Part shown: positions 902 through 3,994 of the stretch, piece after piece
Layout of the letters: each line of letters opens with the position of its first letter
Numbering within the stretch: position 1 is the first letter of the stretch
NCBI RefSeq assembly: GCF_037860775.1
Contig: NZ_JBBEWC010000003.1
Location: forward strand, 178,969 to 210,968
DNA from: Emticicia soli
Lineage (GTDB): Bacteria > Bacteroidota > Bacteroidia > Cytophagales > Spirosomataceae
Length of the DNA stretch: 32,000 nucleotides
Direction: 5' to 3'
Program-made: the position numbers and the translations under genes
The notes under the pieces: model-generated
The model's database searches: none
What the model was told of the DNA's origin: nothing
What the model saw: only the letters and a program-made list of their open reading frames with translations

Positions 902-2254
902 TTATTTCTCTAAAATAGCATAACCGAAGCCTGCTCTTCCGAACCCATTGCCATTATATAACAGATATTTTTTGTTATTATGTTCATAACAGTAAGCATA
1001 ATCTATCATTTCATAATCAAAATCGTTCGGATTATCTGATTTATGAATGCCTACCAAATCGTCTTTACGTTCCCACTTGAAACCGTCTTTCGATTCGGCA
1101 TAGCCTAAACGATAGCTTTGGTTACGGTCGGTGCGGTAATCTCTTGTGTGGCGATAAGAGTAATACATTTTGAAAATACCATCTTCAAAAAATACACTTG
1201 GTCGACCTACTGCGTGCAAGAAATCATCAAAAGGCAGAGCAACATCACCTGTCGGTGTCCATTTAATGCCATCTTCTGATACTGCTACACGGCAGTCGTA
1301 ATAAGGCTCAGGATAACCATGAATGTATTCACATTTCTGGCCAGAGATATACCACATCATCCAGCGGCCATTTACATACATTACCGAAGGTTGCGCTGCC
1401 CAAAGAGGGTTATCAATTGAGCGATCCATGATAGGGCCACGGAACATTTTCTTGAAAGTAATACCGCCATCGGTGCTGACAGATAAGCCCATCGACAGAC
1501 GGTAAGAGTTATGCGTACGATTCCAACCTGTGTAATACAACCAGATGTCGCCATTTGCTTGTGGTACAAACCACGATGGCATAGCACCGGTTTCATCGTA
1601 TTCACCCGGACCACCTAAATCCAATACGAAAGTATCGTGGATATAGAGAATCTTGGTTGGGTCGTCATAATCAACATCAATAAATGTCGGACGAGACTGC
1701 CCGTAGTCGTCTCTTGATGAAAAATAAACTCTTAAGAAATCTTTATGTTTGTAGGCATACGGCACTTGTGCATGTGAGCGGCTATGTGCTAGTGTACCAT
1801 CTGGTTTATAGATTACTCCTTTTTTTTGCCAAGACCCCCCCGCCCCTAAAGGGGAGCTTTTATCTTCAGTAGTTAACATTCGTTTTATCTGATTTAAGAC
1901 CTCTTCAGTGGAATTGTTTAGGGTTTTGTTTGTAATTCTTATAACCCTAATGCCTACTGATTGGTAAAATTCGTCTTTTTCTTTGTCTATTAATTGTTGC
2001 TCATAACTGTTGTGGATACTGCCATCAATCTCAATTACAAGTTTGAGCGTATGGCAGTAAAAATCAGCTATGTAATTGCCAATAGGATGTTGTCTTTTAA
2101 ACCTAATACCTAATTGACTTTTTGAAAGAAAATGCCACAGATGCTCTTCCATTGGTGTCGGATTCGCCCTAAGTTTCGCAGCTCTTTCAAATATAATATC
2201 CGCAGCCCCATAAAACATATTCTCTTTCATACAGACTATTTTTTGTGTGTACAT
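902..2254 (-). CDS. Continuous ORF fusing an N-terminal DUF559 (Vsr-like endonuclease fold) module to a five-bladed beta-propeller glycosidase-like protein (GH43/32/130-like)
   Basis: The track ORF 902..2257 starts at TTG. The first ATG is at 2254 and the next at 2230 (MKENMFYGA..., a typical DUF559 N-terminus). Residues ~10-125 carry the DUF559 pattern (LW..L...FKRQHPIG.YIADFYC..L.IEIDG..H). Residues ~140-451 are rich in W/Y/G propeller repeats, as seen in polysaccharide loci. No stop separates the two modules. An internal ATG at 1879 could start the propeller protein alone (902..1879). Confidence 0.7.
   Translation of the reverse strand: MYTQKIVCMKENMFYGAADIIFERAAKLRANPTPMEEHLWHFLSKSQLGIRFKRQHPIGNYIADFYCHTLKLVIEIDGSIHNSYEQQLIDKEKDEFYQSVGIRVIRITNKTLNNSTEEVLNQIKRMLTTEDKSSPLGAGGSWQKKGVIYKPDGTLAHSRSHAQVPYAYKHKDFLRVYFSSRDDYGQSRPTFIDVDYDDPTKILYIHDTFVLDLGGPGEYDETGAMPSWFVPQANGDIWLYYTGWNRTHNSYRLSMGLSVSTDGGITFKKMFRGPIMDRSIDNPLWAAQPSVMYVNGRWMMWYISGQKCEYIHGYPEPYYDCRVAVSEDGIKWTPTGDVALPFDDFLHAVGRPSVFFEDGIFKMYYSYRHTRDYRTDRNQSYRLGYAESKDGFKWERKDDLVGIHKSDNPNDFDYEMIDYAYCYEHNNKKYLLYNGNGFGRAGFGYAILEK
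1820..1841 (-). repeat. Two homopolymer tracts at the DUF559/propeller junction: sense-strand G7 (1835..1841) and A8 (1820..1827)
   Basis: Read directly. The plus strand shows T8 at 1820..1827 and C7 at 1835..1841. The sense codons are ...GGG GCG GGG GGG TCT TGG CAA AAA AAA GGA... Confidence 0.9.
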
Positions 2255-2300
2255 CAATAGAATATTGTAGAAAATGTGTCTTAAGTTCCCCTTTAGGGGC
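1842..2300 (-). mobile_element. DUF559 mini-cassette bounded by perfect 14-bp inverted repeats (putative selfish or REP-associated unit)
   Basis: GCCCCTAAAGGGGA (1842..1855) is the exact reverse complement of TCCCCTTTAGGGGC (2287..2300). The pair brackets just the DUF559 coding part. Each arm is itself a CCCC-N4-GGGG mini-hairpin. One arm touches the TAG stop (2300..2302) of the upstream methyltransferase, and the other is translated as SPLGA. Confidence 0.5.
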
Positions 2301-3187
2301 TAGGGGTTCTTTTTCCTGTTTTTCTCTGCTCTCAGTTTCCAGTTATCTTTAAAATCTTTTCCAGGAATCTGTAGATTTACGTTTACTGTTGGTGCTTTTT
2401 TGGTTTTCTTAAAATCTAATACATAATAACCGTTACCGAAAATCCATTGTAGCTTTACATCTTTTACATTTTTAGGCAAGTCTTGCAAAGGTACTTGGTC
2501 GGCAAACATTGGGTTGGCGTCCATCAATATCTGGTAAGTTTTTTGGTCTCTTAGCCATGCACCTACGCTTTCGTCGCCTACTACTACACGGCCACCTACT
2601 TTTACTACACGGTTAAACTCTTCAAAAGCCTTAGCTCTTTCTGAGAATGTATTGATACCACCAAAATGGAAAACCGCATCGAAATAATTGTCTTCAAATG
2701 GTAAATAAGCGCCATTACCAATGAAATAATCTATTTGCACATCTTTTTTATCGGCAAATTTTTCTTTGGCATGACCAAGCATCGCTGGCGATAAATCAGA
2801 TAACACCGCATGACCACCCGGAGTAACTTTTTCAATAATATAAGCCGAATCTTTTCCTGTACCTGCGCCTACTTCCAGCACCTTCATGCCCGGCTTTAGT
2901 TTCAATAAACCAATCATGGCTTTGCGTGTAGCTGCCTCGTTGGCATGTAAAGACTCAAATACCCAAGAAACTCCACGGTCGTAGCGTAGGTGAGCATCGT
3001 TATAAGCTACTTGCTCCTTACGGTCTTGCTCGAAAAGTTCTTTCGGGTAAACTAAATCTACAATGTTATTTATATCGTAAGAGATGGGTTCTTCTTGTGA
3101 GCTGTTGTGAAGCGTTTTGCCATCGGCCGACAGAACAAGTTTAGTTCTGGTTTTTGGGCAAATAAGTTGGTCAAAAAATTGAGTCAT
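2300..3187 (-). CDS. Class I SAM-dependent methyltransferase with an N-terminal Trm112-like segment
   Basis: ATG start. The SAM motif I is VLEVGAGTGKDS, with a downstream acidic residue and FHFGG. The N-terminus LICPKTRTKL resembles the Trm112-type ribbon. Confidence 0.8.
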   Translation of the reverse strand: MTQFFDQLICPKTRTKLVLSADGKTLHNSSQEEPISYDINNIVDLVYPKELFEQDRKEQVAYNDAHLRYDRGVSWVFESLHANEAATRKAMIGLLKLKPGMKVLEVGAGTGKDSAYIIEKVTPGGHAVLSDLSPAMLGHAKEKFADKKDVQIDYFIGNGAYLPFEDNYFDAVFHFGGINTFSERAKAFEEFNRVVKVGGRVVVGDESVGAWLRDQKTYQILMDANPMFADQVPLQDLPKNVKDVKLQWIFGNGYYVLDFKKTKKAPTVNVNLQIPGKDFKDNWKLRAEKNRKKNP

Positions 3188-3320: not shown

Positions 3321-3695
3321 CTATATTGCCAAAAGGCTATCGGCAGAAATTCCTAAATCATGATATAGGTTTTTTATCATTCTGAGGGTAAGAGGTCTTT
3401 TTTTGCTTAGAACTTCCGATACACGTTCTTTGCTGCCAAAGTATTTTACTAGGTCTTTTTGGTGTAATCCTTCCTCTTCCATTTTATATTTGATAGCTTC
3501 AATAGGGTCAAGTGGGGCTATTGAGTAATGCTTCTTCTCATAATCTTCTACCAGAATAGAAAGAACCTCTAGTAAGTCAGCCTCTTTGCTATTTTCAGGG
3601 CAATCCCAGAGTTTTCGGATATTATCCATTGCAGCAGTGTATTGTTCTTCTGTTTTGATAGGAGCAATAGTGATATTTTCCATATATAAAATCAT
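3321..3695 (-). CDS. higA: HigA-type antitoxin (XRE-family helix-turn-helix)
   Basis: The C-terminal segment GSKERVSEVLSKKRPLTLRMIKNLYHDLGISADSLL matches the E. coli YgjM/HigA pattern (GSKS.VSRVLSGKR.LTL...KL...FGIS). It lies immediately downstream of higB with a 1-nt TAATG overlap. An alternative start at 3683 (MENITI) is possible. Confidence 0.85.
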   Translation of the reverse strand: MILYMENITIAPIKTEEQYTAAMDNIRKLWDCPENSKEADLLEVLSILVEDYEKKHYSIAPLDPIEAIKYKMEEEGLHQKDLVKYFGSKERVSEVLSKKRPLTLRMIKNLYHDLGISADSLLAI

Positions 3696-3994
3696 TAAAA
3701 TTCGATGGTTTTTGCATCAATCTTATCATATTCTGTATGAGTTCCGATAAACTTTATCCAACATATCTGTTTATCGTATCGAAATGCTACAACCATTCTA
3801 TATTTGTTTCTTGCAATGTTAAATATGATACGAGAATTACCAACAAAATCAGCACCTTTATAATCAGAAACGACTTCTTGCGGTGTTTTATAACTAGCTT
3901 TTGACATTTTTTTTATCCACTCCTGAATACTAGCCTGTGAGTCAGGATATTTGTCGATAAATTCTTTTAATGTTTTAATCGCAATGATTCTCAT
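3695..3994 (-). CDS. higB: HigB-family type II toxin (RelE-like mRNA interferase)
   Basis: A 99-aa protein. The pattern KTLKEF..KYP......W......Y..P.....Y...DF.G..R.IFNI..NKYR.V....Y....C.I.F.GTH.EYD parallels E. coli YgjN/HigB. The toxin-first gene order is characteristic of higBA. Confidence 0.85.
   Translation of the reverse strand: MRIIAIKTLKEFIDKYPDSQASIQEWIKKMSKASYKTPQEVVSDYKGADFVGNSRIIFNIARNKYRMVVAFRYDKQICWIKFIGTHTEYDKIDAKTIEF

Follow-up and report, generated by a model that had tools for sequence, protein, structure and literature searches.

The locus

The window analysed here is a 32-kb stretch of Emticicia soli DNA (contig NZ_JBBEWC010000003.1), in which a short coding module for a DUF559 nuclease domain lies between a methyltransferase gene and a beta-propeller gene and is bracketed by two inverted GC-rich palindromic units, called arms below (Table 1). 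The genes of the part studied are all on the minus strand. A 14-nucleotide (nt) core, GCCCCTAAAGGGGA, is present at 1842-1855 of the plus strand and its exact reverse complement at 2287-2300, confirming the perfect inverted repeats around the DUF559 module that had been described from the letters alone (hereafter the sequence-only reading). With up to two mismatches allowed, the core has no third match in the 32 kb, and in 100 shuffled sequences it matched 0.10 times on average and never as often as twice. The two arms are also the only occurrences of CCCC-N4-GGGG in 32 kb (0.08 expected). The inverted repeat extends to 29 nt (1831-1859 and 2283-2311), of which 25 are complementary (86%).

The sequence-only reading took each arm to be a CCCC-N4-GGGG hairpin. 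The motif is present in both, but a single arm makes a marginal hairpin (DNA dG of -3 to -5 kcal/mol) that is no better than those of shuffles. When the RNA of 2325..1815 was folded, the arms paired with each other as a predicted long-range stem.

The open reading frame (ORF) of the methyltransferase (3187..2300) stops at a TAG at 2302..2300, and its last codons and stop, AAC CCC TAG (2308..2300), lie inside the left unit, which reads AAG AAC CCC TAG CCCCTAAAGGGGAACTT on the coding strand. The core of the left arm, said earlier to abut this stop, shares one base with it, and the extended arm takes in the final three codons of the methyltransferase. The DUF559-propeller ORF is open throughout, with no stop before the propeller part at W143 (TGG 1831..1829). 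The right arm, AGC TCC CCT TTA GGG GCG GGG GGG TCT T, translates to SSPLGAGGS and directly precedes TGG CAA AAA AAA GGA (WQKKG), where the alignment of all propeller orthologues starts. Translation of this arm and the stopless passage of the DUF559 frame into the propeller had both been recognized correctly; the ORF comprises 451 amino acids (aa). The propeller part gives weak Pfam matches of the GH32N type and NCBIfam matches of the mannoside-phosphorylase/GH130-like type, and is therefore called a five-bladed propeller.

Table 1. Features of the cassette and of the two host genes, in window positions.
Feature	Position	Strand	Remarks
Class I S-adenosylmethionine (SAM) methyltransferase (UbiE/COQ5-like), upstream host gene, 295 aa	2300..3187	-	Pfam PF01209, E 1.7e-20
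Left arm: C-run, 3 nt, CCCC-TAAA-GGGG, ACTT; coding strand AAGAACCCCTAGCCCCTAAAGGGGAACTT	2283..2311	.	core 2287-2300; unit type as in L215
Cassette leader, left arm to DUF559 start	2231..2282	-	about 25 nt longer than in L092/L090 (alignments)
DUF559 (Vsr-fold, PD-(D/E)xK) coding module, from ATG 2230 (MKENMFYG)	1880..2230	-	Pfam domain 2188..1874
In-frame ATG, M127 of the 451-aa ORF	1877..1879	-	where the propeller protein probably starts today
Right arm: AGCT, CCCC-TTTA-GGGG, C, G7, TCTT on the coding strand	1831..1859	.	core 1842-1855; unit type as in L092/L090
Five-bladed beta-propeller (GH32/43/130-like), polysaccharide gene cluster, downstream host gene	902..1831	-	from W143; native start codon gone
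Whole read-through ORF	902..2257	-	451 aa from TTG 2257; 442 aa as called, from ATG 2230

The nuclease domain is intact and constrained

DUF559 is among the commonest nuclease families of 'unknown function' in bacteria. In the window, the Pfam family (PF04480) matches aa 24-128 of the 451-aa ORF with 97.1 bits (E 7.2e-28; curated cut-off 20.6 bits), spanning profile positions 5-108 of 109; NCBIfam PRK09767 also matches (E 2.2e-15), below its equivalog cut-off. All 19 columns that are invariant in a 25-member alignment (D56, E67, D69, H73 and others) are kept, and the D..E-x-D..H core and the RQHPI motif are intact. When a profile of the family was compared with solved structures, it matched 3HRL, an uncharacterised structure, with an E value of 6.9e-26, and 3R3P (I-Bth0305I, 'mobile intron protein') with one of 2.4e-4 (24 bits), a weak but specific match. 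The closest characterised relative by profile is thus the homing endonuclease I-Bth0305I, and Vsr, DUF559 and I-Bth0305I have been placed in one group (PMC3424549).

Selection was compared among the window and two loci of relatives, L092 and L090. In the DUF559 domain, synonymous divergence is saturated (pS 0.6-0.85) and the ratio of non-synonymous to synonymous divergence (pN/pS) is 0.10-0.16; the propeller has a similar pS and a pN/pS of 0.03-0.05. In the short linker encoded by the right arm pS is low and pN/pS is 0.7-2.7, over few sites, which suggests that constraint there acts on the DNA rather than on the peptide. By these rates, the DUF559 domain is under purifying selection and is a putative functional nuclease.

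The cassette replaced an intergenic spacer

Used whole as a query, the ORF matched eight fused proteins (440-442 aa, 89-100% identity), one of them identical (P0001). Fused orthologues (P0002-P0008, P0241, P0258, P0261) span at least 11 protein clusters, in which the propeller identity falls to 83-89%. The propeller stands alone, without a nuclease, in over 100 further orthologues (308-330 aa; from Dyadobacter, Runella, Spirosoma, Larkinella and others), which begin MAWQKKG, MWIKKG or MWVKKG. Outgroup genes (L004, Dyadobacter, Runella) lack the arms and start ATG GCT TGG CAA, and in L004 a stretch of 140 nt, with neither arm, separates the stop of the methyltransferase from the ATG of the propeller.

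The most direct evidence comes from two loci in one 90%-identity protein cluster, one filled (L215, with a 447-aa fused ORF) and one empty (L214, propeller start ATG TGG CAA AAG, MWQKKG). On one side their flanks are almost the same as far as ..GGAAGAAAAA, on the other from TGGCAAAA onwards. In the interval the empty allele has an unrelated spacer of about 80 nt, which includes AAG TAA and the propeller ATG, and the filled allele has about 480 nt, consisting of CCCCTAACCCCTAAAGGGGAACT, DUF559 and TCCCCTTTAGGGGTTAGGGGTGT. The methyltransferase accordingly ends ..AAG TAA in L214 and ..AAC CCC TAA/TAG in filled alleles. No target-site duplication was found in this pair; the spacer of about 80 nt was replaced. 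The alignment of the two alleles shows that the cassette took the place of the methyltransferase-propeller spacer carrying the upstream stop and the downstream start, and that the new methyltransferase stop was donated by the left unit. Since the cassette ORF is open through the right unit, the propeller can be translated only from inside the cassette.

From the window alone it had been proposed that the module was inserted where two genes meet and is not a designed fusion of domains, and the outgroups without nuclease or arms, together with the empty/filled pair, bear this out. Judged from these alignments, close relatives differ in carrying a filled, an empty or an internally deleted allele. 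The insertion is old, because synonymous sites are saturated, and has been inherited vertically. It occurred in the ancestor of a genus-level clade, probably Emticicia. The sequence-only reading had regarded a fused ORF conserved across distant relatives as the mark of an old fixed fusion: distant relatives do not have it, yet it persists to 89% identity with saturated synonymous sites and is old. The DUF559 domains of the window and L215 are 65% identical and the propellers 83%, which fits co-divergence at an approximately threefold higher pN in the nuclease; re-invasion of the locus is a possible alternative.

A four-way alignment separated two unit types at the locus. Both arms of L215 are of one type (ACCCCTAACCCCTAAAGGGGAA, 22 nt perfect) and both arms of L092 and of L090 are of the other, CCCCCC(C)GCCCCTAAAGGGGAG, whereas the window combines a left arm of the L215 type with a right arm of the L092 type. 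Matching arms in relatives are 22-25 nt long. The 'perfect 14-mer', exact as it is, is by this alignment merely the core common to both unit types and not the repeat itself. In L090 the right hairpin is degraded (ACTCAATTAGTGG) and the ORF is intact.

Contigs from wastewater and sludge (runs X1, X2) match the locus at 95-99% on either side of a different 92-nt stretch at 1832-1925. This variable patch comprises the C-terminal tail of the nuclease and the right arm and is sharply bounded, with the strains otherwise near-identical, so this end of the cassette is a hot spot of recombination or variation. Besides this patch, contigs of the locus from public runs showed fragmentary 'RNA?' contigs over 1925-2247 and no joints informative on excision or expression.

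The propeller probably starts within the cassette tail

The nuclease has been deleted internally in at least four lineages that keep an intact propeller. In L001, with a 98% identical propeller and 27 nt between the genes, the sequence still encodes N-I-K-R-M-IITEDKNSPSGAGG; L086 keeps KMINMSNESSPSGVRG (the C-terminal tail of DUF559) and P0011 keeps MNNIKQMISREETNPPLGVRG. In L003 the two arms lie about 55 nt apart, with no nuclease and no recognisable DUF559 tail. All of these deletion derivatives retain the right arm and an in-frame ATG upstream of it within the cassette, and L001, L086 and P0011 retain the last DUF559 codons including the Met that matches ATG 1879 of the window. A Met is found at this position in all fused orthologues, and in the DUF559-deleted proteins P0009, P0011 and P0012 it opens the protein or lies 2-6 residues from its first one. 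The DUF559 family consensus here is V/F/L/I, not M, and no other in-frame Met follows until about 95 codons into the propeller. From the Met kept in the deletion derivatives, its departure from the family consensus and the distance to the next Met, we infer that ATG 1879 is the working start of the propeller, as the sequence-only reading had guessed, and that the gene can no longer do without the right arm as coding sequence.

The propeller would be made mainly from ATG 1879, with a 16-residue leader derived from the cassette tail and right unit, and some full DUF559-propeller fusion would be made as well. With the native start gone, selection on the host gene would shield the 3' end of the cassette; this would explain why every decayed copy keeps it.

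The same cassette type lies at unrelated loci across Bacteroidota

Eighty Bacteroidota loci were assembled from a search with DUF559 only and a scan of species-representative genomes, and hairpins (CCCC-N3-7-GGGG, at most 90 nt from the gene ends) were counted for 76 DUF559 genes. An upstream hairpin was present at 30 of the 76, as compared with 20 of 401 displaced control windows and 3 of 157 other gene ends at the same loci; a downstream hairpin at 35, as compared with 25 of 401 and 3 of 157. Hairpins on both sides were found at 20 of the 76 DUF559 genes, 3 of 401 displaced controls and none of the 157 other gene ends. The association of Bacteroidota DUF559 genes with G/C hairpin repeats, which the sequence-only reading had mentioned, therefore holds. 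The two flanks shared an exact inverted repeat of 10 nt or more at 25 of 76 DUF559 loci (7 of 401 controls), and units had a density of 4.7/kb beside DUF559 and 0.22/kb elsewhere.

The units share the form C-run, 2-5 nt, CCCC-TNNA-GGGG. The left consensus is (A)ACCCC(C), 2-5 nt, CCCC(C)-TAAA-GGGG(G)A, (A)CTT, the right one is its complement, and both are recognisable from Pedobacter through Chitinophagaceae to Bacteroidales, between proteins that are only 45-55% identical. Particular unit types go with particular nucleases. Loci L009, L011, L013 and L014 share a unit type ..CCCCCTCCGCCCCCTRAAGGGGGAACT, and L024, L034 and L041 a specific left type with a different right type, within flanks that cannot be aligned, so the nuclease and its units reach new loci together. 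Comparison of these loci shows the same cassette type, with unit types travelling with DUF559 clades, at unrelated sites across Bacteroidota.

Exact terminal inverted repeats reach 35 nt in L009 and L013. A strict model of terminal inverted repeats was nevertheless rejected: doublets without cargo are heterotypic, with an identity of 0.62 within pairs as compared with 0.53 for random pairs, and the pairs flanking DUF559 are not clearly more symmetric on average (0.64, by a best-of-several measure).

Read-through into host genes recurs. At 37 loci with a downstream unit, 16 DUF559 ORFs stop before the unit, 5 stop at a TAG or TAA in its loop and 16 read through it; overall, 13 of the 80 (about 16%) run hundreds of codons into host genes or lie within them. 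The in-frame partners are HisF in four Pedobacter species (..PPLGGGGG-LSKRIIPCLDV), TrpA, a nucleotidyltransferase, an N6 DNA methylase, PriA, a DegT aminotransferase, LeuRS, and MetH at the linker ahead of its B12 domain. Among protein matches, ArgB-DUF559 fusions use the SSPLGAGG linker of the window. This recurrence of one architecture and linker (SPLGAGG, PPLGGGGG) in fusions to unrelated genes is further support for insertion. Left units often abut or donate the upstream stop, as at hisA (TAA directly followed by CCCC) and hisF (..ACC CCC TAA).

Solo units were also seen in Pedobacter. The hisF stop, ..ACC CCC TAA, comes from a solo left-type unit (L007 4150-4290, L018 4145-4275), and the N-terminus of hisI holds an in-frame solo right-type unit (TPPSGGWGV) where a relative (L010 4140-4300) has TAGLLP; units therefore insert by themselves in coding sequence. 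Other unit-like peptides in frame (L047, L079, P0201) are PSPNGEGSEV and SIWRGAGGEV in DNA methylase, PPSPPERGQGGEV and SLPLGEVGGV in LeuRS and SPLQGMGA in ArgB. Judged by their sequences, they point to several related families of units. A separate observation concerns annotation: one source calls stand-alone DUF559 proteins (P0122, P0131, P0195 and P0207 among others) 'cyclase' or 'imidazole glycerol-phosphate synthase subunit HisF', and these names very likely stem from read-through ORFs in which DUF559 is joined to HisF, as in Pedobacter.

Units without the nuclease and palindromes in other phyla

Contrary to what the sequence-only reading implied, the arms are not found with the cassette alone but are members of a far larger family of dispersed units. 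An unbiased metagenome scan for CCCC-N2-5-CCCCTAAAGGGG gave at least 220 pattern matches on at least 120 contigs, of which two, among those listed, carry a DUF559 gene; under a relaxed hairpin definition both genes have a hairpin within 26-52 nt. The contigs listed have at least 57 inverted pairs, mostly without cargo and spaced by 7-170 nt; one of the pairs listed carries DUF559 and one brackets trpF. The idea that units are decayed DUF559 cassettes was rejected. A relaxed hidden Markov model search around the 220 matches listed found two intact DUF559 genes and one match with an E value of 0.11, and beyond these no remnants, so most units are not deletion derivatives.

Small 'viral' contigs of IMG/VR (L218, L219, L222, L226, L230, L232, L233 and L235) carry distant DUF559 genes (33-38% identity), bracketed about 90 nt to each side by inverted GC palindromes of another sequence family, for example CTCCGCCCCCTACGGGGGCGGACAGACC and its complement. 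A phage origin of the cassette was rejected, as IMG/VR holds only distant DUF559 relatives (at most 43% identity). In Escherichia coli K-12, the stop of the DUF559 gene ycjD (L297 7196-7420; NC_000913.3, about 1351195-1351419) falls within the loop of a GC palindrome, and 154 nt downstream this palindrome recurs in inverted form. The 55-nt ycjD unit is a dispersed repeat, present in all 5,426 of 5,426 complete E. coli genomes at a median of 16 places per genome. This repeat is probably BoxC, a family whose length and copy number match it (PMC2267715). Together, these sequences suggest that the link between DUF559 and palindromes is not confined to Bacteroidota.

A probable selfish cassette and its alternatives

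We consider it probable (about 0.7) that positions 1831-2311 of the window are one copy of a selfish DUF559 cassette, kept and spread in a homing-like manner between inverted GC-rich palindromic units. The nuclease would cut or nick DNA at or near units or empty junctions, and recombinational repair from a filled copy would then restore or spread the cassette, as in homing; the homology for repair would come from flanking host coding sequence or from dispersed units. Through the open frame, ribosomes translating the operon would pass the GC-rich right unit into the host gene, so that insertions on start codons or inside genes stay viable. Mobilisation itself is likely to be either homing-like or similar to that of repetitive extragenic palindromic (REP) sequences by REP-associated tyrosine transposases (RAYTs).

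Several points weigh against this interpretation. The activity, target and transfer of the DUF559 nuclease are putative, and the dominance of the ATG 1879 product over the fusion is a prediction. None of the 220 unit matches listed lies within 200 nt of a DUF559 gene, so the units are independent of a neighbouring DUF559 gene; on the metagenome contigs listed most units are doublets without cargo, and the nuclease may just have inserted where they already lay. The 32-kb window contains no further unit or DUF559 gene, and of the DUF559 genes elsewhere than at the orthologous locus even the nearest is no more than 56% identical; there is thus no sign of recent spread in the genome, and a recent multi-copy burst was rejected on these same grounds. 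The replacement in L214/L215, being without target-site duplication, leaves the chemistry of integration conjectural. Finally, long vertical persistence under purifying selection would also fit a domesticated host function.

The main rival is a role in trans like that of RAYTs. DUF559 would be a nuclease acting on dispersed units and doublets, which it would mobilise or maintain; the gene itself would be largely single-copy, kept vertically and not self-copying, with the inverted units beside it marking the relationship. We give this a real but clearly smaller chance. The vast excess of units over DUF559 genes and their arrangement, among the matches listed, mostly as closely spaced inverted doublets are as this model would have it, as is the unit near both full DUF559 genes of the listed unit-selected sample. 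Purifying selection and long vertical inheritance agree with reports on RAYTs, REPs reportedly donate stop codons and sit inside ORFs (PMC3733652), and DUF559 genes of other phyla (the IMG/VR contigs, E. coli ycjD) are flanked by other palindromes. DUF559 is, however, a PD-(D/E)xK nuclease, with no known strand-transfer or HUH chemistry; doublets without cargo usually have heterotypic arms, and the window holds no further unit. That DUF559 clades and their flanking units move jointly to new loci is the behaviour of a cassette and not of a fixed single-copy gene.

Much less likely is an adaptive fusion, in which DUF559 would serve the propeller as a functional N-terminal domain, or the gene cluster as a domesticated regulator, with the repeats incidental. 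Conservation of the fused ORF in 11 or more protein clusters, the purifying selection on the DUF559 domain and the failure of any stop codon to arise over a long period would all be expected of it. Against this, over 100 orthologues manage without the domain, and its deletion in four or more lineages with the propeller left intact suggests that it is dispensable. An empty allele exists within the same 90% cluster, the same cassette of nuclease and units is fused to many unrelated enzymes, and the linker peptide is fast-evolving, by the few sites it offers.

RNase III-like processing of a stem occurs with the intervening sequences of 23S rRNA. An element of this kind, in which the arms pair in the operon transcript as a processing site or translational control stem and not as part of a mobile DNA, is the least likely of the readings, although the minimum free energy fold of 2325..1815 pairs the arms over about 25 bp around the DUF559 ORF (dG -134.9 kcal/mol, z -6.2 as compared with shuffles) and the arms change in concert between lineages (both of one type in L215, both of another in L092): cutting the stem would detach ATG 1879 from the propeller coding sequence, the arms of the window are of two types (25/29), L090 has a degraded right hairpin and an intact ORF, the coding strand has no terminator-like T-run, units elsewhere are mostly solo or in short doublets, and a search for a known RNA family or intron found nothing in Rfam at E <= 1 except a sub-threshold IMES-1 match. 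A terminator or attenuator reading of the arms was rejected too, the coding strand having no T-run and the sole terminator-like match being on the opposite strand. That match (2290-2316, plus strand) consists of the left arm and the following TTCTTTTTCC, and there is no plus-strand gene nearby.

Other modules at the cluster junctions

A HigB toxin gene (3994..3695, minus strand; Pfam E 3e-28) lies between the methyltransferase and an acetyltransferase, adjoined by a gene for a putative antitoxin of 124 aa (3695..3321, minus strand) with no Pfam match. The pair is missing from the same position in L092, L003, L214 and L215, and therefore appears to be a second selfish insertion in the polysaccharide cluster. 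Toxin-antitoxin pairs of the MNT/HepT (nucleotidyltransferase/HEPN) type are found in relatives at the methyltransferase-propeller junction (L087-L089) or at that or the next junction (L214 2990-3594, L086 1426-1707), which marks the junctions of this cluster as repeated landing sites for selfish modules.

Comparison with known systems

Among known systems, the nuclease belongs to the same superfamily as the Vsr-like (EDxHD) homing endonucleases, such as I-Bth0305I (PMC3239194) and those of 'fractured genes' (PMC2677866). Like these, the cassette is a small ORF that occupies a fixed position within or between conserved genes, with filled and empty alleles in close relatives and decay by deletion in some lineages. 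Unlike them, it has neither intron nor intein, its ORF and flanks are translated with the host gene, and it is bracketed by inverted palindromic units that are also abundant without it. A search for the housing of homing-class genes found no Rfam intron, no Hint/intein Pfam domain and no stop of its own, as DUF559 reads into the host gene. An intein would also be in frame, but Pfam finds only DUF559 here, and the junction peptides (SPLGAGG and others) are translated palindromes.

The likeness to the REP/REPIN-RAYT systems and bacterial interspersed mosaic elements (BIMEs) of Proteobacteria (PMC3116915, PMC2817692, PMC3733652) is of another kind: a nuclease gene flanked by inverted GC-rich palindromes, units that far outnumber the gene, inverted doublets, donation of stops, in-frame positions in genes and vertical persistence. 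DUF559, however, is a PD-(D/E)xK nuclease of the Vsr fold and RAYT a HUH/Y1 (IS200-like) transposase; the units described here start with a C-run and lack the GTAG/CGTC tag of REPs; and DUF559 with its two units reaches new loci as one cassette. Rickettsia palindromic elements (cited in PMC3733652) are likewise palindromes that are stopless in some frames and tolerated as extra peptides, but they are geneless, whereas the cassette carries a nuclease domain of 120 aa and can take over the start codon of the host. With insertion sequences and miniature inverted-repeat transposable elements it shares terminal inverted repeats of 20-35 nt around one small ORF and a short form without cargo (L003). 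It differs from them in having no match to a transposase family in a Pfam scan, no target-site duplication in L214/L215, and arms that are independent dispersed units, often heterotypic.

DUF559-palindrome cassettes or in-frame DUF559 insertions were not found described in the searchable literature, which leaves most subscription journals uncovered. The link to palindromes gives DUF559 a candidate function, that of a selfish or repeat-associated nuclease, and the cassette accounts for one kind of odd chimeric ORF. GC-rich palindromic peptides, SPLGAGG and PPLGGGG among them, are scattered through the proteomes of Bacteroidota, where they mislead annotation. By seizing a downstream start codon, a selfish insert can become hard to lose.

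We conclude that the feature can be likened both to a homing-endonuclease-like gene and to a REP-associated nuclease, and is a member of neither: it lacks the intron or intein, or the stop of its own, of the one, and the HUH transposase and GTAG/CGTC tag of the other. A broader proposal, which we put forward tentatively and do not favour as it stands, is that DUF559 proteins are the cognate nucleases of a large, hitherto unassigned class of GC-rich palindromes, comprising the C-run/CCCC-TNNA-GGGG units of Bacteroidota, the palindromes of other phyla and possibly the BoxC-like repeat of ycjD. Its autonomous form would be a 'translationally transparent' cassette, able to settle on start codons or in housekeeping genes and to be carried there in frame with no splicing, and nucleases and palindromes together would be a second, non-HUH counterpart of the RAYT-REP pair. 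If the nuclease recognises the units, the two would form a new partnership of enzyme and repeat beside that of RAYT and REP, and a source of structure- or sequence-specific nicking enzymes.

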